From contig PMCS01000028.1 in the NCBI GenBank assembly GCA_003154195.1, forward strand, positions 1 through 62,400: 62,400 nt of DNA. Direction: 5' to 3'. Position numbers and translations under genes: made by a program. Below, piece by piece: positions 1 through 62,400 of the stretch; the stretch's first letter is position 1, and every line of letters begins with the position of its first letter. The notes beneath the pieces are model-generated. The model was not told the DNA's origin, ran no database searches, and saw nothing but the letters and a program-made list of their open reading frames with translations. Origin of the DNA: Candidatus Omnitrophota bacterium (GTDB taxonomy: Bacteria > Omnitrophota > Gorgyraeia > Duberdicusellales > 4484-171).

Positions 1-656
1 ATAGCATTGGCCTGATTCGTGATGGCGGTGGCTAAAGCAGTATTGGCCGTGGTTACCGCTTTTTGCGCGGTGGCGATAGCATTTGTCTGATTCGTGATGG
101 CGGTAGCTAAAGCTTTTTGTGCGTTAGTTAACGCGGTTTGAGCGTTAGTCAATGCTTTCTGCGCGGCGGTTTTTTGCGCCGGAGTTATAGCCGCGGCTAA
201 TGCGGCCTGGGCTGCGTTTACACTCGCTTGCGCTGTGCCGACCTTTGTCTGGGCAGCAGCTACCTTAGCGGCCTGGGCAGCGGTTACGGTAGCTACATTA
301 GCCACAGCTTTGTCTACTGCGGCTTGGGCTGTCGCTACCTTTGTAGCCTGGGCAGCGGTTACGGTAGCTACGTTAGCCACAGCTTTGTCTACTGCGGCCT
401 GGGCTGTCGCTACTTTTGTAGCCTGGGCAGCGGTTACGGTAGTTACATTGGCCTGGGCTGTCGCTACCAGCTTTGCCTGAGCAGCGGTCACCGTAGCCAA
501 ATTTTTTTGCGCGGCAGTTACTGGTGCCTGGGCCGTGACTACTTTAGCCCGGGCTAGTTTAGCCGCGGCAATAGCTTGGTCCAAAGTCATTGCGGCAAAA
601 ACCGGGTAAGAAGTAATTAATCCAAGAATAAGCGCTAATCCCATTACTTTTTTCAT
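1..656 (-). CDS. secreted Ala/Gln/Thr/Val-rich tandem-repeat protein (N-terminal part; runs off the left edge)
   Basis: Absent from the ORF track because there is no stop in the window. GGAGGTG lies 5 nt before the ATG at 654-656 (minus strand). Reads MKKVMGLALILGLITSYPVFA/AMTLDQAIAAAK (signal peptide), then stays open to position 1 as 25-aa units such as VTAAQATKVATAQAAVDKAVANVAT. Confidence 0.75.
   Translation of the reverse strand, partial: MKKVMGLALILGLITSYPVFAAMTLDQAIAAAKLARAKVVTAQAPVTAAQKNLATVTAAQAKLVATAQANVTTVTAAQATKVATAQAAVDKAVANVATVTAAQATKVATAQAAVDKAVANVATVTAAQAAKVAAAQTKVGTAQASVNAAQAALAAAITPAQKTAAQKALTNAQTALTNAQKALATAITNQTNAIATAQKAVTTANTALATAITNQANA
271..495. repeat. three tandem 75-bp (25-codon) repeats inside the repeat-protein gene
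   Basis: GCCTGGGCAGCGGTTACGGTAG recurs at 271, 346 and 421 with near-identical 75-bp units. The same 75-bp period is visible at 1/76 (ATAGCATT...). Confidence 0.85.
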
Positions 657-31844: not shown

Positions 31845-32131
31845 CTACCCGTGCCGTTCAAATTGAGGCTCAAAAACTGGTGCATAATGTCTGTCGGCGA
31901 AAATTGACACAAATGAGAATTCTTGAAGGGATTTCAGCGGATTCAAGCTTTTTATTCATTCCCGCAGAAAACCCTGCTTTTCAAAGCGGGGATGAATGCG
32001 GAATGAATAATCCCGCTGCAGTTTAGCGGGATTATCTAGAAGAAGCCCCGCGTTTCAACGCGGAGCGATTCACTGCCAGGGGGATGCAGAAAAGATAAGA
32101 CTTCTAGCCGATGGTAAAATCAGCGTTTTTT
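31845..32131 (+). mobile_element. IS left-end fragment, type B, carrying a 120-bp triple-hairpin insert
   Basis: Starts CTACCCGTGCCGTTCAAATTGAGGCTCAAAAACTGGTGCATAATGTCTGTCGGCGAAAATTGACAC and ends GCCGATGGTAAAATCAGCGTTTTTT as at 62116-62137. Its last 12 nt overlap the 3' end of the Fic CDS. Confidence 0.8.
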
Positions 32132-33058
32132 AACCTCCGGCCCCCTGTCCTCCTTTATCTTTCCTTCTAACAGCCTGTATCCTACCATAACACTGTCGCA
32201 GACCATTTGAACGATATTTTTCATATCCCCATCATCAGCTTTGCCTAATGCCATGTAGTAATTATACCTATCCTCTATCCGTACTACCGCTGGGGGAAAA
32301 CCCTGGCTTAATAACTGGCTGGCCGTTAAAAGCCTTCCGGTTCGGCCGTTACCGTCAAAAAAAGGATGAATTACCTCAAACTCATAATGGTCATGGGCAA
32401 TTTTCCCTAAGGGATCCTTTCCGCAAGTATTGATATGTTTTATAAGGTTGTCCATGCGTAGCGGCACTTCCTGCGCCGAGGGAAGCGCCTTTTCGGTATT
32501 GGTCAAAATCACATGGCCGGTGCGGAATTTCCCCGGGAGTTTGTCGTTAAAATTATACATGATGATTTCATGTAGTTTCAAAACATAGTCCAACCCGATT
32601 TTAAACCCTGGCCTTATCGTTTCAAGCATATAGTTCATGGCGTTCTTGTGATTTATCGCTTCAAGAATTTCAAATACTTCTTTGCCTTTGACTTTTTCTC
32701 CGGCGATAGCGGCTTCGGTATCTTTTAGCGACATCCGGCTGCCTTCAATAGCATTGGAATGATAGGTCATATTAAGAATAAAACTTGCGCGTATTTCGTT
32801 ATTTGTTTTCAAAAAGTTCGGCGGCTCCGGACATTTTCCTCGCAGCTCTAAAACAACGCTACGGATATCGATATATTCCTTAAATAGCTGGTCGATATCC
32901 CGGCTCTGCCGTGGATGGGGATTGACGTCTTTTTTCAACCAGCGCCAGACGGTGACATACGGCACTTCCAGCCATTTCGCTAGGTTGGCGACGGAAGTAC
33001 CGGTTTTGGCTAATATTTTTTCGAGTTTCTGCTTGTCGGATAATTGTAGTATTTTCAT
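32120..33058 (-). CDS. Fic-family protein with an N-terminal HTH (class II, intramolecular inhibitory motif)
   Basis: Fic motif HPFFDGNGRTGR. SNAIEG matches the (S/T)xxxE(G/N) inhibitory motif N-terminal to the core. N-terminal HTH (TSVANLAKWLEVPYVTVWRW). Confidence 0.9.
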   Translation of the reverse strand: MKILQLSDKQKLEKILAKTGTSVANLAKWLEVPYVTVWRWLKKDVNPHPRQSRDIDQLFKEYIDIRSVVLELRGKCPEPPNFLKTNNEIRASFILNMTYHSNAIEGSRMSLKDTEAAIAGEKVKGKEVFEILEAINHKNAMNYMLETIRPGFKIGLDYVLKLHEIIMYNFNDKLPGKFRTGHVILTNTEKALPSAQEVPLRMDNLIKHINTCGKDPLGKIAHDHYEFEVIHPFFDGNGRTGRLLTASQLLSQGFPPAVVRIEDRYNYYMALGKADDGDMKNIVQMVCDSVMVGYRLLEGKIKEDRGPEVKKR

Positions 33059-33153: not shown

Positions 33154-33613
33154 CTCCCCGTGCCATTCAGATTAACCAGGATTAGGGCTTGAAAACTGTT
33201 ACATCAGGTTGTCGGCGAAAATGACCCCTCTAAGACCCTCCCTATGCTTTGCCGCTGGGTTCAGGGTTTAGGCAATGAACCGCCGGGATATAAAAACAGA
33301 AATAATTCAGGAAAACTAAAATGCCAATCGCGGATGGGTGGGATGATGAAGCACAAATGTACTCCCTGCGGCAAGCTCGCCTCGTTTCGCATTGGCGAAG
33401 CGGGCCGCGCTGGTATCTAGCTTCATTTCTTCGAAGTTCTCCTACGCTCTTTGAGCTTTGGAAAAATCTCGCCGAAGTTCTCCTCCGCCGTTATTGACTT
33501 CGGAGAAATCTCGCCGAAGCTTTAGCGAAAGTGGACCTTGGCGAAGGCGGACCTTGGCGAAGGAGAATGGGGCATTATTATTGGGGGTAGGGTTGGATTT
33601 TACATGAACAGCC
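33154..33613 (+). mobile_element. internally deleted, non-autonomous IS copy (left end A + transposase C-terminal codons + C-insert + right end)
   Basis: The left end (33154-33269) is joined directly to NEPPGYKNRNNSGKLKCQSRMGG-coding sequence. A 221-bp insert follows (33348-33568), then GGCATTATTATTGGGGGTAGGG...TTTTACATGAACAGCC. Confidence 0.8.
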
Positions 33614-33639: not shown

Positions 33640-34188
33640 TCAAAATGATATCCCCATGGCGGGAGTAACACTACCTTCAGATGTACTTTTCAACTTTACC
33701 GGCGAGGCATCTTCATCCTTGTTATCAGATTTACCCTTAGCCCCAGCCTGCTTTAACAGGCGGACGATTTCAGTATCCCCGTTCTGTTCTGCCCACATTA
33801 AGGCTGTCGCACCATCATTAGCTTTAGAATTGACATCGGCACCCTTAGCCAGTAAAACCTTAACGATTTCAGTATGTCCTTTTAATGCCGCTATCATCAA
33901 AGCTGTCCAACCGGCGTTATTCTTCACACTAGCATCAGCACCTTTGGCCGATAAAGTCTCAACGGTTTCAGCATATCCGTTCTGCGCTGCCAATATCAAG
34001 GCTGTCGCACCATATTTATCCTGGGCATTAACATCGGCGCCTTGAGCCAGCAAAGCCGTGACGGTTTCCGTATGCCCGTTCGTTGCTGCATCAAGCAACC
34101 GCTGATTCAAGTCCTGCGCGAAGACGGTAACCGAAACCAGTAACATTAACAATACAATTCCACTGAATATTTTTATTGTTCGAAGCAT
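33640..34188 (-). CDS. secreted ankyrin-repeat protein
   Basis: Signal peptide, then four ANK repeats (GxTALxxAAxxGHxExVxxLLxxGADVNA). Confidence 0.9.
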   Translation of the reverse strand: MLRTIKIFSGIVLLMLLVSVTVFAQDLNQRLLDAATNGHTETVTALLAQGADVNAQDKYGATALILAAQNGYAETVETLSAKGADASVKNNAGWTALMIAALKGHTEIVKVLLAKGADVNSKANDGATALMWAEQNGDTEIVRLLKQAGAKGKSDNKDEDASPVKLKSTSEGSVTPAMGISF

Positions 34189-38823: not shown

Positions 38824-38991
38824 CTACCGGCGGTAGCCTGTTGCCTTTAAGCCGGATGAGTTAATTATACACCTAAAAGAAAGCTAAAAAAATGATAATT
38901 TTGGAAGGAGTTTCAGGGAGTTTGGGCTTGTCCGGTACCAGGGGGATGCCAAAAAAATGAGACTCATAACCGATGGTAAAATCAGCGTTTT
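38824..38991 (+). mobile_element. IS left-module fragment (3' part of the type B module)
   Basis: CTACCGGCGG...TTAATTATACACCTAAAAG...ATGATAATTTTGGAAGGAGTTTCAGGGAGTTTGGGCTTGTCCGGTACCAGGGGGATGCC...CCGATGGTAAAATCAGCGTTTT aligns with 61966-62135. Weaker similarity extends back to about 38670. Confidence 0.7.
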
Positions 38992-39175
38992 GCCCGGGTT
39001 TAATGAATCCCGTGAACGGGGCAGGTCAAACCCCTACCGCAAATGATTACATACCGGGCAGCGCAAGACCCGCCCCTGCACGAACAAAATCCGAGATTGC
39101 CACGCCGCGCAATGGTTCGACTGAGCCCAACACGAGTAGTGCGGCTCGCAATGACGACCTTGATAATAACCTAGC

Positions 39176-41770: not shown

Positions 41771-42110
41771 CTACCCGTGCCATTCAAATTGCGGCTCAAA
41801 AACTGGTGCATAATGTCTGTCGGCGAAAATTGACACAAAAGTATATGCTCGATTTTCCGCTGATTTGACCTTGAAAACCGATTCCCTTAAATGGCCCAAC
41901 GTTCTGCCCGCACCCAAGGGGTAAAAAAGCTGTAGTTTTTAGGATAGAAAAAGGAGACATACCGCCGGCAGAGAGAAACACACTATCCTCTACCCTATCC
42001 AGCTTGGCTAATTATACACCTAAAAGGAGCCTAAAAGAATGAGAATTTTTGAAGGGATTTTAGTAATTTTGAGCTTTTCTGTTACTAGGGGGGTGCCGAA
42101 AAGATGAGAC
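41771..42110 (+). mobile_element. IS left module, type B, copy without a transposase
   Basis: About 98% identical to 45389-45660 over the first 270 nt or so. Begins CTACCCGTGCCATTCAAATT. Confidence 0.85.
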
Positions 42111-42133
42111 GGGGTAAATTACACCCACTTTAT

Positions 42134-42397
42134 TTATCTAAACTCACGCAGGTAACGTTTTACTCCATCGTGGTTGCTAACTAATACAAGATAATAAATA
42201 TCATTCTCGGCCTTCACGACAATTCTTAAACGCAGCCCGGCGCGGAACTCATATTTGTTGTGGTTTATCTTCTTAAAGCCTAAACCAGCGGGAGCGCGGC
42301 CGTAAAGAACAAAATCATTAAACTACTCAAGGCTTCCGGCGAGTTGTTCTTTTTCTCCGGCACTCAAGCGTTTAACGCTCCGCTCAAAAGAAGGCAA
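42134..42397 (-). pseudogene. RelE/ParE-like toxin gene interrupted by an in-frame TAG
   Basis: Reads (TTG)PSFERSVKRLSAGEKEQLAGSLE*FNDFVLYGRAPAGLGFKKINHNKYEFRAGLRLRIVVKAENDIYYLVLVSNHDGVKRYLREFR. The TAG is at 42323-42325. Paralog of the intact toxin at 45831-46133. Confidence 0.7.
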
Positions 42398-42402
42398 TAT
42401 TA

Positions 42403-42761: not shown

Positions 42762-43052
42762 CTCCCCGGGTCAGCCAGAGTGCCGACAAATGTTTTTGGA
42801 CCTTTAAGTGCTAATCGCAGAAAACATCTACAGTGGATACTTTTAGAGGTTGTTTGGCATTTTATCCGTAAGCAGCCGGACAAACTTAGTAAATACGAAG
42901 TTATTTCAAAAAGGAAAAACGTCAATACGGCAAAAGTGGCTATCGCCAGGGATATGTTAAAAGTAATCTATCATATCCTTAAAGAAAAACGGCCGTTTTA
43001 CAAGAAAGAACAAATTCAGTCAGTGGCAGCGCCTGTGCTCATAGGGGTCTGA
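42762..43052 (+). pseudogene. IS110-family transposase, C-terminal remnant only
   Basis: ...LQWILLEVVWHFIRKQPDKLSKYEVISKRKNVNTAKVAIARDMLKVIYHILKEKRPFY matches the Transposase_20 C-terminal pattern (GxKxAxVAxARKLLxxIYHxL). The N-terminal DEDD domain is absent. Confidence 0.7.
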
Positions 43053-43320: not shown

Positions 43321-43845
43321 TTAATCGTAAGAAACAACCATTTGCATTGCTGTGTTGGCATTCGGGAAGGGATACCGCACGGTTCCCGTACCATTGCCGA
43401 GGACGCCATCAAGCTGGAGGTCAACCCTCCCCGCCGCGCTGGTGTTTGTTGTCGCGGGAATGTTGGTTGCGACGATATAGCGCGCTTGTTCGAGAGTACC
43501 GTCTCCGCTCCAATCATACATCGCACTGGAGTTAAAACTATAGTTGCCACTCCAAGGGTTTCTCCTCGGCCATTTTTCTAAGTAGGGCCCATCCCAGGAA
43601 AGGTTGGAAACCGATCCGGTAGAATTGTTAATAAAACCTGAACCGTTGCTGGTATTATCCGGCCAGTAACCGATATCGGAATAAAACGCCATCGCCGAGG
43701 TTTTCATGGCCTTATAATCGCCGATAAAAGCGCTTACCTTGCCTTTTTCGATTGCCTTAAAAGCGTTGGGCGCGACAACTGCCGCGAGTACCGCGATAAT
43801 GGCGATAACAACGATTAGCTCGACCAAAGTAAAGGCCTTTTTCAT
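43321..43845 (-). CDS. type IV pilin / pseudopilin (paralog of 25572-26102)
   Basis: MKKA/FTLVELIVVIAIIAVLAAVVAP prepilin motif. AAGGAGG SD. The C-terminal domain aligns with the first pilin (WPDNTSNGSG.INN.TGSVSN.SWDGPYLEKWP.RNPW). Confidence 0.9.
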   Translation of the reverse strand: MKKAFTLVELIVVIAIIAVLAAVVAPNAFKAIEKGKVSAFIGDYKAMKTSAMAFYSDIGYWPDNTSNGSGFINNSTGSVSNLSWDGPYLEKWPRRNPWSGNYSFNSSAMYDWSGDGTLEQARYIVATNIPATTNTSAAGRVDLQLDGVLGNGTGTVRYPFPNANTAMQMVVSYD

Positions 43846-43955: not shown

Positions 43956-44098
43956 TAGTGTTAGGATAAAAGAGAAAGCCGCCACCCTGCATTTGTATGC
44001 AAGATGGCGGCCCGACCATCTTAAATCCTCCAGAAGTTATTCTTCTGGACCCTTATACATTACCCTTATTTTTTTGATAAAAAATTAGCTTACAATTA

Positions 44099-45388: not shown

Positions 45389-45729
45389 CTACCCGTGCCA
45401 TTCAAATTACGGCTCAAAAACTGGTGCATAATGTCTGGCGGCGAAAATTGACACAAAAGTATATGCTCGATTTTCCGCTGATTTGACCTTGAAAACCGAT
45501 TCCCTTAAATGGCCCAACGTTCTGCCCGCACCCGAGGGGTAAAAAAGCTGTAGTTTTTAGGATAGGAAAAGGAGACATACCGCCGGCAGAGAGAAACACA
45601 CTATCCTCTACCCTATCCAGCTTGGCTAATTATACACCTAAAAGGAAGCTAAAAAAATGAGAATTTTGGAAGGGATTTCAGCGGATTGAAGCTTTTTTGT
45701 TACCAGGGGGATGCAGAAAAAATGCCGAC
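45389..45729 (+). mobile_element. IS left module, type B, second copy without a transposase
   Basis: See 41771-42110: nearly identical 5' 270 nt and a diverged 3' 70 nt. Confidence 0.85.
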
Positions 45730-45830
45730 TTTACGCTATTGGCTTACGCCGATAAAATATTTCTCCAAAAGTTAAAAATTTATCCCTAAAACATGATTTT
45801 TAAGCCGGATTTATTTCCGTGCCGCTTGAT

Positions 45831-46133
45831 TTAACTTTCAGCTAAAAATCTGCGCATTTGGTCATGATTGCCGGCAAGAACGAGTAAACACTGTTCACCT
45901 TCACGACGGATAACTACTCGTAAATTCCGTTCCACTCCGGCTTCATAGTATGGTTTACGTAACTGTTTATAGAAAAATCTGGGCGCTATCGCCGAAGCCT
46001 TATTTAAATCGCCGTTGCTCTCATAATACGCATCCAAGGCTTCCAAAATTAAACCCACGATCTTTCTCTGTTCATCGGACAAACGCTTAAGGCACCTGTA
46101 AAAAGAAGGTCGATAATATAGCCCGAGCGACAT
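45831..46133 (-). CDS. RelE/ParE-like toxin
   Basis: 100 aa. PSFYRCLKRLSDEQRKIV...LRVVIRREGEQCLLVLAGNHD. Immediately downstream of the AbrB antitoxin gene. Confidence 0.75.
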   Translation of the reverse strand: MSLGLYYRPSFYRCLKRLSDEQRKIVGLILEALDAYYESNGDLNKASAIAPRFFYKQLRKPYYEAGVERNLRVVIRREGEQCLLVLAGNHDQMRRFLAES

Positions 46134-46135
46134 GC

Positions 46136-46393
46136 TTAGATTTTTCCCCGTTTCAGACCAGTGATAAATTTCTTGGAGACTTTGGCCTGACGGCCTTTTT
46201 CTTTAATGCATAGGCCGTCGATTCGGCGATATTCTTCATCAGTAAATTCTTTTTCTCTGACTTCCAACGGTATAAGCTCGATACGGTTACGGACAACCTC
46301 CACGTTAAACAAAGAACCTTTGGCAAGTCCTAAAGTCTGGGCTATACGCTTAGGTATCGTTATCTGGTTTTTAGCCGTCATCAATATCGTCAT
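46136..46393 (-). CDS. AbrB/MazE-family antitoxin
   Basis: TAKNQITIPKRIAQTLGLAKGSLF is a SpoVT-AbrB motif. Confidence 0.8.
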   Translation of the reverse strand: MTILMTAKNQITIPKRIAQTLGLAKGSLFNVEVVRNRIELIPLEVREKEFTDEEYRRIDGLCIKEKGRQAKVSKKFITGLKRGKI

Positions 46394-46469
46394 ATTTCAC
46401 CTCCAATCCGAATATACCATATAAACCGATAATCGTCAAGGTAGAAAGTAAGGTAGCCTTACTGTCTCC

Positions 46470-46644
46470 TACTCGGGCCGTGCGGGTATTCTCCTACGCT
46501 CTTCGAGCTTCGGAGGAATCGCGCCGAAGTTCTCCTTCGCCGTTATTGACTTCGGAGAAATCTCGCCGAAGCTTTAGCGAAGGTGGACCTTGGCGAAGGA
46601 GAATAAGGCATTATTATTGGGGGTAGGTTGGGTTTTTACACAAA
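46470..46644 (+). mobile_element. IS right-end fragment (C-insert plus right end)
   Basis: ...CGCCGAAGTTCTCCTTCGCCGTTATTGACTTCGGAGAAATCTCGCCGAAGCTTTAGCGAAGGTGGACCTTGGCGAAGGAGAATAAGGCATTATTATTGGGGGTAGG...TTTTTACACAAACAGG. Confidence 0.75.
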
Positions 46645-46668
46645 CAGGAACGTCTTGTTTATGTTTAT

Positions 46669-50052: not shown

Positions 50053-50301
50053 ATGGGGTATAAAACCGGAAAAAATTCAGGAAAACTGAAATGCCAATCG
50101 CGGATGGGTGGGATGATGAAGCACAAATGTACTCCCCGCGGGGCTTACCGCGGGGTATCTAGCTTCATTTCTCCGAAGTTCTCCTTCGCCATTATTGGCT
50201 TCGGAGAAATCTCACCGAAGCTTTAGCGAAGGTGGACCTTGGCGAAGGAGAATAAGGCATTATTATCGGGGGGGATAGGGTAGATTTCTACACGGGTAGG
50301 G
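50053..50301 (+). mobile_element. IS right-end fragment with the best-preserved right terminal repeat
   Basis: Transposase C-terminal codons (SGKLKCQSRMGG), a 136-bp insert (50118-50253), then GGCATTATTATCGGGGGGGATAGGGTAGATTTCTACACGGGTAGGG. The end is the reverse complement of the left terminus CCCTACCCGTG. Confidence 0.8.
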
Positions 50302-58950: not shown

Positions 58951-59097
58951 CCTACCTGTGCCGTTTAAATTACCGGCCGGACATCCGCCGGTATAAGACC
59001 GGAAAAAATTCAGGAAAACTCAAATGCCAATCGCGGATGGATGGGATGATAAGGCATTATCATTGGGGGTAGGATTCGGGTTTTTGCACGGGCGGTT
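58951..59097 (+). mobile_element. 147-bp MITE-like derivative of the IS (left end fused to right end)
   Basis: CCTACCTGTGCCGTTTAAATTACC... is joined to ...AATTCAGGAAAACTCAAATGCCAATCGCGGATGGATGGGATGATAAGGCATTATCATTGGGGGTAGG...TTTTTGCACGGGCGG. The site where other copies carry the C-insert is empty here. Confidence 0.8.
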
Positions 59098-59321
59098 ACG
59101 CACGGAAGAACTCTGCCAGAATGGGCTTGAAGGTTTTGTTTTTTGTTATTATTTTAACTATGCAAAGTAATTAAATAACGAAAATTTAACTCACTGGCTA
59201 AAAAACTGCTTTCTATGGCGCTCAAAGATACTGTATATAATTTTTGCATCGGCCGGCTTGTTGTTCTGCCCAGAAAGAAAAATGGGCAGCCCCCGCTATG
59301 CAATGACTACCCTAAAATTCC

Positions 59322-60331: not shown

Positions 60332-60847
60332 CTACTCAAACCTCACCGTTAATTTTTTATCTAACACCCCGGCGATTGCGGCCAGGGTTTCAACAGAAAA
60401 ATTTTCCCGGCCGGATTCGATAGCAGAGATGTATTGTTGGATTACATTCATCTTATCGGCCAGTTCTTTTTGGGTATAGCCTTTTTCCTTGCGGATTATT
60501 TTGATCTGCTCGGCCACAACCAGGCACTCCGATAAGATGCGTTTTTTCCCCACGCGGATTTTTATTCCCTCCGCTCTCAACCCGTCCTTTACCGTTTCAT
60601 AAATTGTCTGCCAGAACTTAGGCGCGTCGGAGTTCCAGGCATCTTTCCTGATGAGTTTTTTTATTGCCGGCCATTTTTTACAAAAGGTTATTTTATCAAC
60701 GTAGCAAAAAGCCTCTTTCGCTTCGCGTACACGGGAAAAAAGCTTAGCCGCGTAAATCAAAAATTTAGGATGTTCGCCGTTGCTTAAGGCTTCCTTAATT
60801 TTTTCTTCGCCGACCGGAATATCCCAAAACCAATTTTTTTTCATCAT
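60332..60847 (-). CDS. XRE-family HTH protein with an uncharacterised N-terminal domain (candidate partner of AbiEii)
   Basis: C-terminal HTH KGYTQKELADKMNVIQQYISAIESGRENFSVETLAAIA. Overlaps the upstream AbiEii-like gene by 4 nt. Confidence 0.75.
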   Translation of the reverse strand: MMKKNWFWDIPVGEEKIKEALSNGEHPKFLIYAAKLFSRVREAKEAFCYVDKITFCKKWPAIKKLIRKDAWNSDAPKFWQTIYETVKDGLRAEGIKIRVGKKRILSECLVVAEQIKIIRKEKGYTQKELADKMNVIQQYISAIESGRENFSVETLAAIAGVLDKKLTVRFE

Positions 60848-61539
60848 TCCACCAATTTTTTGGGAATAATTTTCAGTATTTCGTTGTCCAAATGCGTTAA
60901 CACCGTGCCGGTGTCTACCTTAGGAACAATATCCAGGAGCTCCATCTTTAAATTCATGCGGTTAAACCCCCGATACCAGTTGATCAGCGTATACGCTTTA
61001 TCGTAAGAAAAATATTCAAAGAAAAATTTTGAAAGAGAAAAATAGTGCTGCGACAAATAATAGAGGTCGAAAATATCTTTAGCGGCTTGGCGGCCCATCG
61101 CAGCTACGCGACCGGTATCGTCCTCCTTTACGCGTCCGGTTGCGATGGTTAACTTACGGTAGTAAATATCATCGATAGAGTGAAGGCCGCCCTCAATTGG
61201 CTTCAGGTTTTTGTAAACATCTTTGACAAAGTCTATTTTTAATGAACTGCCTCTTCGAATATCCAGCATATAAACCGCCATTTCCACAAATCGAGAACTT
61301 TTTCGTTTAACTTCCAGACTGGCGGTAAAGCCGGTTTGGGCGGCGATATATTTGATGATTTTTGCTGCCGCAGCATTAGTATGCTCTGGGCTGAAAAAAT
61401 CCAGATCTTCAGAAAAGCGGTGGTTAAAATATATAGAAAGCGCCGTTCCTCCGGTAAGGTAATATTGAGGAAACTCATCAACCACCAGCTTAAACAATTT
61501 TTTCTGCGTATCTATTATGTATTTTTGCTTTTGCTCCAT
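60844..61539 (-). CDS. nucleotidyltransferase AbiEii/AbiGii-family toxin (DUF1814)
   Basis: YLTGGTALSIYFNHRFSEDLDFF matches the AbiEii NTase motif; 231 aa. Confidence 0.75.
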   Translation of the reverse strand: MEQKQKYIIDTQKKLFKLVVDEFPQYYLTGGTALSIYFNHRFSEDLDFFSPEHTNAAAAKIIKYIAAQTGFTASLEVKRKSSRFVEMAVYMLDIRRGSSLKIDFVKDVYKNLKPIEGGLHSIDDIYYRKLTIATGRVKEDDTGRVAAMGRQAAKDIFDLYYLSQHYFSLSKFFFEYFSYDKAYTLINWYRGFNRMNLKMELLDIVPKVDTGTVLTHLDNEILKIIPKKLVE

Positions 61540-61658
61540 AAAAGCCTCACTTTAAATATACTATATATAGATAGTATTGTCAAGTAATAAATCAAAAAAT
61601 GTGATAAAATAAAAGGCTTATTATTACTATCTATGAATAGTGTTTTTAACATAAACCC

Positions 61659-62400
61659 TACCCGTGCCGTTAAAATTACCGCTGCTTAAGGTTACTTTCG
61701 CCTAATCAGATACGCGTAAACAGGAATACGGTCACTTGCTTTTGTTGTCCGCGGGCGCAACAGGTGCCTAGAAACTGATGTATCAGGTCTGTCGGCGAAA
61801 ATTGACACAAAAGTATATACCAAATATATACGAAATATATACTCATATATAAAAAGTATATACTCGATTTTGCGCTGATTTGAGGGCTTAAGCGCTCTGA
61901 CGCAGGCTGAAGGGGTAAAAGCTGTAAATTTTTTTCAGTCTTTAATTATTTTACCAACCGACAGAGACAACCACTCTACCGCCTTACCCCTACTATCCAG
62001 ATGGCCTAATTATACACCTAAAGGGAAGGTAAAAGAATGAGAATTTTGAAAGGAGTTTCAGGAAGTTTGGGCTTGTCGGTTACCAGGGGAGTGCCATAAA
62101 GATGAGACTTATAGCCGATGGTAAAATCAGCGTTTTTTAGGGAGGAAACCGGATGAACTATACCAATTCTTATACCATAAACAGTAACCTTTTCCAAGAG
62201 TTTTTATTTCTTTTAGGCAGGGTGACCCAGGGCAACCTGATCCGGCAGATGGAGTATCTAAAGGTAGAAAACGAGATATTAAGGTCTAAGTTACCGGAAA
62301 GGATAACTACTACGGCCAGCGAGAAACGTAGAATTATTAAATACGGCTTACCGTTAGGCGGTCAAATCAGGGATATTATCTCTATCGTAAACTATTCTAC
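61659..62400 (+). mobile_element. the only IS copy in the window that retains a left end plus a transposase start (continues past the right edge)
   Basis: Left terminus CTACCCGTGCCGTTAAAATT at 61659, a 494-nt non-coding module, GGAGG SD, and ATG at 62153. Confidence 0.8.
62153..62400 (+). CDS. transposase, N-terminal part (family of HTH + rve DDE transposases)
   Basis: Not in the ORF track because there is no stop in the window. MNYTNSYTINSNLFQEFLFLLGRVTQGNLIRQMEYLKVENEILRSKLPERITTTASEKRRIIKYG. The LKxENxxLR leader is typical of IS481-like rve transposases. The C-terminal remnants at 53119-53750 belong to the same family. Confidence 0.7.
   Translation, partial: MNYTNSYTINSNLFQEFLFLLGRVTQGNLIRQMEYLKVENEILRSKLPERITTTASEKRRIIKYGLPLGGQIRDIISIVNYS

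Follow-up and report, generated by a model that had tools for sequence, protein, structure and literature searches.

Anatomy of the left arm

The window, that is, the whole 62,400-nt stretch of DNA analysed here, ends inside an insertion sequence (IS) whose transposase gene is preceded by a long left arm. The left inverted repeat (IRL, CTACCCGTGCC) begins at 61658, one base ahead of the start given in the preliminary description (61659), and the transposase ATG lies at 62153. The distance from the left end to the start codon is therefore 494-495 nt, in agreement with the long gap noted in that description. No ORF of at least 50 aa was found on the + strand between the left terminus and this ATG. 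The features of this copy are as follows.

61658..61671, + strand: IRL, CTACCCGTGCCGTT, common to 11 co-oriented copies in the window and the inverse of the right terminus
61672..61770, + strand: variable segment after the terminus, ~75 nt longer than in L047 and in the copies at 41771 and 45389 (alignment A4)
61790..61807, + strand: conserved subterminal palindrome TGTCGGCGAAAATTGACA, present in all W-type copies
61814..61863, + strand: five TATATAC repeats, about one helical turn apart
62006..62023, + strand: conserved block CTAATTATACACCTAAAG, from the alignment of copies
62037..62099, + strand: block 1 (AATGAGAATTTTGA), found in subfamilies A, B, C and W, and the 20-codon mini-ORF that follows from it (MRILKGVSGSLGLSVTRGVP, then stop)
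62083..62108, + strand: block 2, CCAGGGGAGTGCCATAAAGATGAGAC, the most widely conserved element of the arm
62102..62140, + strand: second mini-ORF (MRLIADGKISVF, then stop), which starts 2 nt past the first stop and whose own stop overlaps the transposase Shine-Dalgarno (SD) sequence
62117-62132, + strand: shared block GATGGTAAAATCAGCG
62119..62127, + strand: TGG+TAAAAT, an extended -10-like box and second promoter candidate; the GCGGTAAAAT block in A, B and C
62139-62145, + strand: SD sequence of the transposase, AGGGAGG
62153..62400, + strand: first 82 codons of the transposase gene, which runs past the end of the window; recognised from its homologues

All of the shared blocks listed in the preliminary description are present: TGTCGGCGAAAATTGACA, CTAATTATACACCTAAAG, GATGGTAAAATCAGCG and a stretch free of insertions and deletions, which corresponds to the 65-nt interval between the ATGAGA motifs at 62037 and 62102. 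The three variants of the segment following the terminus are likewise real, including the segment of the 61658 copy that is longer by ~75 nt. The palindrome TGTCGGCGAAAATTGACA contains a perfect TTGACA at 61802-61807. The five TATATAC repeats reported earlier were recovered with starts at 61814, 61825, 61836, 61846 and 61857 (spacing 11, 11, 10 and 11 nt), the fourth reading TATATAA. The array is also found in L046 and L047, and a single repeat of it is left in the 41771 and 45389 copies.

The transposase and its family

Full-length homologues of the 82-aa fragment are 353-356 aa long and are encoded by a single uninterrupted ORF (L004, L012 and many others). Pfam identifies HTH_32 and rve_3 within the one transposase ORF, and HTH_32, rve_3 and rve_2 are the only domains matched. 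Neither of the NCBIfam models for related families names this transposase, as both scores fall far under the cut-offs: 79.9 bits against 160 for NF033516 (IS3) and 79.5 bits against 224 for NF033577 (IS481). At E <= 1e-20 the family comprises 1,403 protein clusters from Omnitrophota, Planctomycetota and related metagenomes. Where its members have public names at all, these are "integrase core domain-containing protein" or "putative transposase". Relatives with ~30% identity occur on plasmids of Streptomyces, Leptospira and Bradyrhizobium, and these are likewise without a family name.

The ends of the element read CTACCCGTGC...GCACGGGTAG. The right end lies at or just past the transposase stop codon (...CATTATTATTGGGG...), and in the window's lineage a terminal ...TTTTTGCACGGGTAG is found ~25 nt further on, which is the inverse of the left terminus. 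Within the window the right terminus (..TGCACGGGTAG) is seen at 50283-50296 and 59088-59100. The left-end 14-mer occurs 16 times in the window with up to three mismatches, compared with 4.3 +/- 2.0 times in shuffled sequence, and all 11 of its matches with up to two mismatches are on the + strand. Four intact elements were searched for subterminal repeats of the left arm that recur inverted at the right end, with short, inconsistent matches only. No convincing hexamers were seen for a junction promoter across abutted ends or for an outward promoter. A strong minus-strand promoter is present at 61583-61555, outside the element.

The host element, which is common in Omnitrophota and Planctomycetota, is an unclassified DDE insertion sequence related to IS3 and IS481. 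It shares with both families an rve-type catalytic core preceded by a helix-turn-helix (HTH) domain and short terminal inverted repeats, and with IS481 the single transposase ORF made up of an N-terminal HTH and the rve DDE core. It differs from both in that its transposase scores under the two NCBIfam cut-offs. In the IS3 family the transposase comes from two overlapping ORFs through a programmed -1 frameshift, and the termini are 5'-TG...CA-3'. The element described here has no -1 frameshift but a single ORF of 353-356 aa, and its termini are CTACCC...GGGTAG rather than the TG...CA type.

Conservation of the long arm across the family

DDE insertion sequences usually have less than 100 nt before the transposase gene. 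Among 124 related loci taken from genome and metagenome collections, those in which the left terminus was found have it (C[CT][AC]CCCG..) 150-640 nt upstream of the ATG, and the long left arm is thus a trait of the family. Arm length differs by subfamily: in A and B it is ~350 nt, in C 480-600 nt and in W, to which the window copy belongs, 427-494 nt; in L013 it is ~150 nt. The position of the transposase start is conserved among the homologues, which argues against a start much further upstream in intact copies.

The closest relatives outside the window, L045-L047 (N-terminus 89-90% identical), were aligned with the window copies in A4. In the alignment of subfamilies A, B, C and W, conservation over the 190 nt before the ATG is confined to short blocks between which the spacers vary freely. 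Conserved across all four are block 1 (AATGAGAATTTTTGA), block 2 (YAG(n)GGGGT[GA]C, then 9-10 A/T-rich nt, then ATG[AC]GAC), CTAAC and GCGGTAAAAT; in the last of these the A at hexamer position 2 is invariant in A, B and C. The interval from block 1 to block 2 is 63-73% identical between subfamilies, to be compared with 65-76% for transposase codons 10-82 and 43-53% for their third positions. Since its identity is close to that of the codons and well in excess of that of their third positions, this interval is under purifying selection. The distal arm behaves differently: it is unrelated between subfamilies, and even between copies of one genome, and it has absorbed insertions of 75 and 123 nt as well as a 43-nt deletion. 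In subfamily C, three to four direct TTTGTCC repeats are present and are confined to the arm.

A ParB-HTH gene in the arms of sister lineages

In some sister lineages the arm is not non-coding. In L002, L090, L020 and L014 it consists of a gene for an HTH_ParB protein of 114-144 aa that scores above the Pfam cut-off, and in L002 this gene begins at the terminus itself. The arm of L017 codes for a 161-aa distant homologue (E 1e-7 to L020). The last codons of this ORF read through block 2 (...AFQRGALILRPDF, then stop), and its tail resembles that of the mini-ORF found in arms with a 66-nt spacing of the ATGAGA motifs (...FCSQWGTVIMRPVK, then stop). The HTH part of the L017 protein also gives a weak match to the transposase N-terminus (E 5e-4 to 0.1). 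In the IS3 family the ORF ahead of the catalytic one codes for a separate DNA-binding regulator, OrfA, and the HTH proteins of the sister arms (114-161 aa) are similar to it in this respect. They differ from OrfA in that the HTH is of ParB type, the gene is separate without a frameshift, and the protein is absent from the window's lineage.

A six-frame search of the A, B, C and W arms and of the window copies with an HMM of the arm proteins returned only hits with E > 0.1, and tblastn together with the HMM gave nothing below E 0.1 for the window's arm. A remnant of the ParB-HTH gene in this arm was accordingly rejected, the weak similarity of the tail being all that was seen. Since the sister arms encode the protein, the window's lineage most likely has a non-coding descendant or replacement of the gene; its loss or replacement in this lineage is a plausible reading.

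Copies without a transposase

The preliminary description had held that the module is conserved and kept even where no transposase is present, and blastn of the module against the window did recover all of the copies it listed as homologues (31845-32132, 38862-38991, 41771-42110 and 45389-45709, all on the + strand). The derivative copies in the window are the following.

31845..32132, + strand: rearranged copy with the arm's first 70 nt, block 1, an insert, block 2 and the TAAAAT box
33154..33612, + strand: MITE of ~460 nt with left and right ends, no transposase and a nested small repeat
38824..38994, + strand: transposase-proximal fragment of the arm, from the TTAATTATACACC block through the TAAAAT box
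41771..42110, + strand: left-arm copy ending just past block 2, followed by a diverged antitoxin/toxin-like pair
45389..46647, + strand: cassette-type derivative without a transposase, having a 341-nt left arm that ends just past block 2, and a right end
58952..59100, + strand: mini-MITE of ~150 nt without a transposase
28733, 40112, 44199, 52823 and 60121, + strand: solo left ends

The insert of the 31845-32132 copy is 123 nt long and rich in hairpins, and in the mini-MITE ~25 nt of the left end are followed directly by the final ~90 nt of the transposase gene, with the right terminus after them. On the minus strand, 45389-46647 carries a MazE-type antitoxin together with a toxin-like partner; a right end was not detected for the 41771-42110 copy. 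The antitoxins beside the two copies are 45% identical. Pfam places one of them in MazE_antitoxin above the cut-off and matches the other only weakly, and the toxin-like ORFs downstream of both have no Pfam match. The mosaic of the 41771 and 45389 copies noted previously is real: their first 270 nt are 97.4% identical and their final 71 nt 79% identical, the values given earlier being about 98% and 70%.

The derivative copies have their breakpoints immediately past block 2 or past the TAAAAT box. In total, 11 left and six right ends are present in the window, all 17 on the + strand and in gaps between minus-strand genes. No matching flanks indicating a target-site duplication were seen by eye at three complete copies. 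IS ends enclosing no gene are known as MITEs, and those enclosing passenger genes as mobile insertion cassettes; 33154-33612 and 58952-59100, with both inverted ends and no transposase, are like the former, and 45389-46647, with both ends around an antitoxin/toxin-like pair, is like the latter. They differ from these known forms in that no target-site duplications were identified, several solo left ends accompany them and all 17 ends are co-oriented. We conclude that the copies lacking a transposase belong to this same IS, as deletion derivatives of MITE or cassette type and as solo left ends, and the independent mobility of the module proposed earlier is not needed to explain them.

Block 2 as a candidate promoter and end-like operator

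Nearly every lineage has block 2, between -50 and about -190 relative to the ATG, and the nested locus L020 has it twice. It contains a -10-like hexamer, AAAGAT, at 62098-62103, and its invariant A87, A90 and T91 (alignment A3) are positions 2, 5 and 6 of nAnnAT, the sigma-70 -10 pattern. A TTGnC motif lies 15-16 nt upstream of nAnnAT, as read by eye in the alignment; a sigma-70 promoter would have its -35 hexamer at 16-18 nt. The evidence for a promoter is weak, and this -10 reading is our own and is looser than the rule of the promoter scanner. The consensus scan of the + strand called no promoter in the window copy, L047, L004 or L009, and its sole + strand call was TTGGCC-17-TAAAAT, at the TAAAAT box of L064. 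A hairpin, identified by eye, directly follows the conserved ..GAC in several lineages; a transcript 5' end at this place would fit.

Block 2 also resembles the left end of the element. It has a G-run where the left end has its terminal C-run, and in the window copy the sequence after the G-run (GTGCCGTTAAAA) matches that after the C-run of the left terminus (GTGCCATAAAGA) at 9 of 12 positions, which ranks first among 465 arm positions. The same comparison with the 12 nt past the C-run of the IRL gives 9/12 in L089, 11/12 in L091 and 10/12 in L092, again rank 1 in each. Block 2 is thus the arm's best match to the left end in four loci from two lineages. In L047, L003, L017 and L002 the match is 7-8/12 (rank 3-8), and in subfamilies A and B it is unremarkable (5-6/12, rank ~40 of 320). 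The inner motif is absent from the right end in A and B. On account of its likeness to the left end past the C-run, we read block 2 as a putative internal, non-cleavable copy of the end that carries a promoter. Block 2 would then be a candidate transposase promoter combined with an end-like operator, as far as can be judged from the sequence.

RNA structure and short ORFs in the arm

The non-coding region beside the recombinase gene of IS110/IS1111 elements encodes a bridge or seek RNA (PMC11187229, PMC11208158). Because such regions encode programmable RNAs, a long conserved non-coding arm deserves a check for RNA. For 40 non-identical diverged sequences (-190 to +25), RNAalifold gave a + strand consensus of -1.67 kcal/mol with five invariant and no covarying pairs, and the minus strand of this proximal half gave 0.0; the distal half (32 sequences) gave 0.0 on either strand. 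RNAalifold thus gave neither a consensus structure nor a covarying pair on the + or the minus strand. The window module does not fold more stably than shuffled sequence on the + strand (z -0.16) and is somewhat more stable than shuffles on the minus strand (z -2.79). No Rfam family was found in the module at the gathering score, the best E-value within it being 3.1. The sole Rfam match in the window, nhaA-I (44002-44052), does not fall in the module. Between the TAAAAT box and the SD sequence, subfamilies A and C have a hairpin with 59 double-change cells, compared with 34 +/- 6 in shuffles and lower values in slid controls, which implies RNA-level constraint on at least part of the leader. 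This hairpin is deleted in the window copy. A structured RNA was rejected given that RNAalifold, the + strand z-score and Rfam are all null except for the lineage-specific hairpin before the SD.

The preliminary description had asked whether the variable segment is complementary to flanking target DNA. One such segment, AACCAGGATTAGGGCTTG, is common to five copies whose flanks are unrelated, and it cannot therefore be a target-matching guide. A guide-like role of the variable segment was ruled out, as identical segments adjoin unrelated flanks. A literature search on long leaders in rve-type IS gave work on IS110/IS1111, TnpB and IS1 only.

The two ATGAGA motifs (62037 and 62102 in the window copy) are 65-66 nt apart in nearly all copies. 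In many members of W, C and A the first mini-ORF has 20-22 codons, with a stop that overlaps or abuts the second start (ATGA or TAAnnATG), and its length in relatives ranges from 7 to 31 codons. Throughout subfamily B only 7 or 16 codons of it are left. In three lineages with relatives whose transposases are intact, codon 11 is an in-frame TGA, and the 66-nt variants carry a frameshift in this ORF. These truncations, stops and frameshifts show that the peptide is not conserved, and a conserved micropeptide was rejected for this reason. Variation at the motifs is restricted to the starts ATG, GTG and TTG, and codon 2 is mostly an Arg codon (AGA, CGA or AGG). The second ATG has become AAG, AAA or CAA in the L013, L093, L105 and L109 lineages, with the rest of block 2 kept. 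No SD sequence precedes block 1 in A, B or C.

Alternative explanations

An arm that encodes a non-coding RNA on either strand, regulating the transposase or guiding the choice of target, would be comparable to the bridge or seek RNAs of IS110/IS1111 or to RNA-OUT of IS10, and the regulatory or guide-like RNA of the preliminary description falls under this heading. The resemblance to IS110/IS1111 lies in the long conserved non-coding region adjoining the recombinase or transposase gene (PMC11187229), and the stability of the minus-strand fold and the covarying hairpin of A and C also speak for an RNA. The IS110/IS1111 systems, however, combine a DEDD recombinase with a structured RNA and loops matching target and donor, none of which were found here; the enzyme is an rve DDE transposase. 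With no consensus structure or covariation on either strand, no Rfam match, an unremarkable + strand fold, a covarying hairpin that the window copy lacks, conservation in short primary-sequence blocks with freely varying spacers and one variable segment shared by copies with unrelated flanks, we judge an RNA of this kind quite improbable. We regard as unlikely, if less so, that two leader ORFs are translated with blocks 1 and 2 as their starts (Met-Arg-Ile-Phe-Glu... for ~20 codons, then Met-Arg-Pro/Leu...) and that their stop-to-start coupling sets transposase translation, or that the hydrophobic 20-22 aa peptide is itself functional. The near-constant ATG-to-ATG distance, the contact of the first stop with the second start and of the window copy's second stop with the transposase SD, the restriction of changes to alternative starts and mostly Arg second codons, the intact 20-22 aa form in W, C and A and the likeness of its tail to the C-terminus of the L017 arm protein speak in favour of this explanation. 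It is opposed by the shortened, interrupted or frameshifted first ORF in B, in the three TGA lineages and in the 66-nt variants, by the lack of an SD before block 1 in A, B and C and by the loss of the second ATG from an otherwise retained block 2; furthermore, a transcript that begins at block 2 or the TAAAAT box would not include the first ORF. Translational control by the mini-ORFs remains a partial and non-exclusive rival to the promoter/operator reading.

The arm could also be a functionless relic, made up of a decayed upstream gene and nested debris and carried along passively. A ParB-HTH gene does occupy the same place in sister lineages, the distal arm is unrelated between subfamilies and even within one genome, and sizeable insertions and a deletion are tolerated there. 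But the block 1-block 2 interval is as conserved as coding sequence, block 2 is kept across nearly all lineages, and the HMM of arm proteins detects no remnant in A, B, C or W, and we give this explanation very little credence. Equally doubtful in our estimate is that the block 1-block 2 unit makes a trans-acting product needed by, or controlling, the DDE transposase. Such a product might be a short unstructured RNA, or a 20-22 aa peptide descended from the tail of the ParB-HTH arm protein; if true, this would give elements of the IS3/IS481 type an accessory factor of a kind that is not known from them.

A probable cis-acting leader of the transposase gene

Of the two options offered in the preliminary description, transposase-binding or regulatory sites fit the evidence best. 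We consider it reasonably probable, with moderate confidence, that the arm is cis-acting 5' leader or regulatory DNA of the IS rather than a structured or guide RNA. The outer terminus at 61658 would be the end that is cleaved, and block 2, ~430 nt inside, would repeat the inner, presumably transposase-bound part of the left end. Block 2 would thereby serve as the transposase promoter, with a sigma-70-type -10 hexamer, and at the same time as an end-like operator, and the binding of transposase to it would limit the enzyme's own synthesis (autoregulation). Between block 2 and the start codon, the second -10-like box (TGGTAAAAT) and the two short upstream ORFs may add translational control. The distal arm, with its palindrome, TATATAC array and variable segment, is specific to the lineage and probably provides accessory protein-binding or bending sites. 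Most likely, the window's lineage keeps only the 3' tail of the ParB-HTH gene, where the promoter would lie. The sequences establish the anatomy of the arm, its conservation across the family, the lack of a conserved RNA structure and the likeness of block 2 to the left end, whereas promoter and operator activity and a role for the mini-ORFs are inferred.

IS1, IS2, IS30 and IS911 are autoregulated, with the transposase promoter located within the left end. The element described here is similar in that its promoter-like element coincides with sequence resembling the transposase-bound part of the left end. It differs in that this sequence lies inside the element as a copy of the end, 170-490 nt away from the true terminus, and in that binding and repression are putative.

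These results define a large group of insertion sequences without a name, comprising more than 1,400 transposase clusters, together with its MITE and cassette derivatives, among them one with an antitoxin/toxin-like pair as cargo. The architecture of the group is unusual, since an outer terminus is combined with an internal end-like promoter block (as we read it) and with an arm that codes for a ParB-HTH protein or is non-coding depending on the lineage. For this type of IS, the outcome of the RNA check is against an RNA guide. The description of the group aids the annotation of poorly studied genomes of the Omnitrophota and Planctomycetota type, and it provides a concrete, testable case of possible transposase autoregulation through an internal copy of the element's own end.

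Transposase start and mini-ORF codons

Across subfamilies (40 loci), the nucleotides of transposase codons 6-10 (TCTTATACCATAAAC, window 62168-62182) are nearly invariant and synonymous changes are scarce. This sequence comparison suggests that these codons are under additional constraint at the DNA or RNA level. Besides these codons, TATACC is also found within the TATATAC repeats of the arm. In the mini-ORF that starts at block 1, one of the conserved arm blocks, codon 11 is an in-frame TGA in three separate lineages (window 45687-45689, and the same codon in related loci L047 and L004/L087), and the frame beyond the TGA is retained.

Hairpin and nested elements

The long-form elements of subfamily C (L050, L054, L062, L063, L067 and L088) start with CCTAACTCC, and in the same six loci AGATAAAAA followed by a hairpin lies about 110 nt upstream of TGGGGTCCC. 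Compensatory changes in this hairpin are clear when the loci are compared, and its minus-strand sequence has the form of an intrinsic terminator.

In L020 (1800-3000), the leader of one IS copy houses a nested L002-type element, consisting of terminus, ParB-HTH gene, block 2 and transposase; as a result of this nested insertion, block 2 occurs twice in L020, at -686 and -82. Nested in the rearranged 31845 copy and in two right ends are members of a second family of small repeats, which abounds in CCCGC...GCGGG hairpins (window 31953-32075, 33371-33571 and 50141-50255).

Genes and other features around the arm copies

The toxin-like ORF adjoining the 41771 copy (window 42126-42400, minus strand) is broken by an in-frame TAG (...AGSLE*FNDFVLYGR...) and is probably a pseudogene, unlike its counterpart at 45831-46133, which is intact. 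An ORF fragment that separates the 41771 cassette from the genes beyond it may be a C-terminal piece of an IS110-type transposase, to judge by its appearance; a Pfam search at E 0.01 gave no match for it. The riboswitch listed below is located upstream of the minus-strand ORF 43321-43845. An AbiEii-type toxin gene is found near the related IS in L002 (874-1719) too, as in the window.

Features of the window
1-503, start of window: tandem repeat, 75-nt unit, about 6 copies
33764-34089: tandem repeat, 99-nt unit, 3 copies, within minus-strand ORF 33640-34188
42780-43052, plus: 90-aa ORF fragment
44002-44052, minus: nhaA-I riboswitch (Rfam RF03057, 55.9 bits, gathering score 37)
60844-61539, minus: AbiEii-type toxin gene, directly left of the IS

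Orientation and placement of the IS ends

Within window 26400-62400, all 11 left ends and all six right ends of the IS family are oriented on the plus strand.

IS ends in the window
28733, 31845, 33154, 40112, 41771, 44199, 45389, 52823, 58952, 60121 and 61658, plus: left ends
26403, 33573, 46609, about 50260, 53733 and 59055, plus: right ends

In this same interval, the left ends lie upstream of a minus-strand gene, 20-260 nt from its start, and the right ends 20-220 nt past the stop of the next minus-strand gene. This placement, together with the uniform strand, suggests that the IS family inserts into intergenic regions in an orientation-specific manner.
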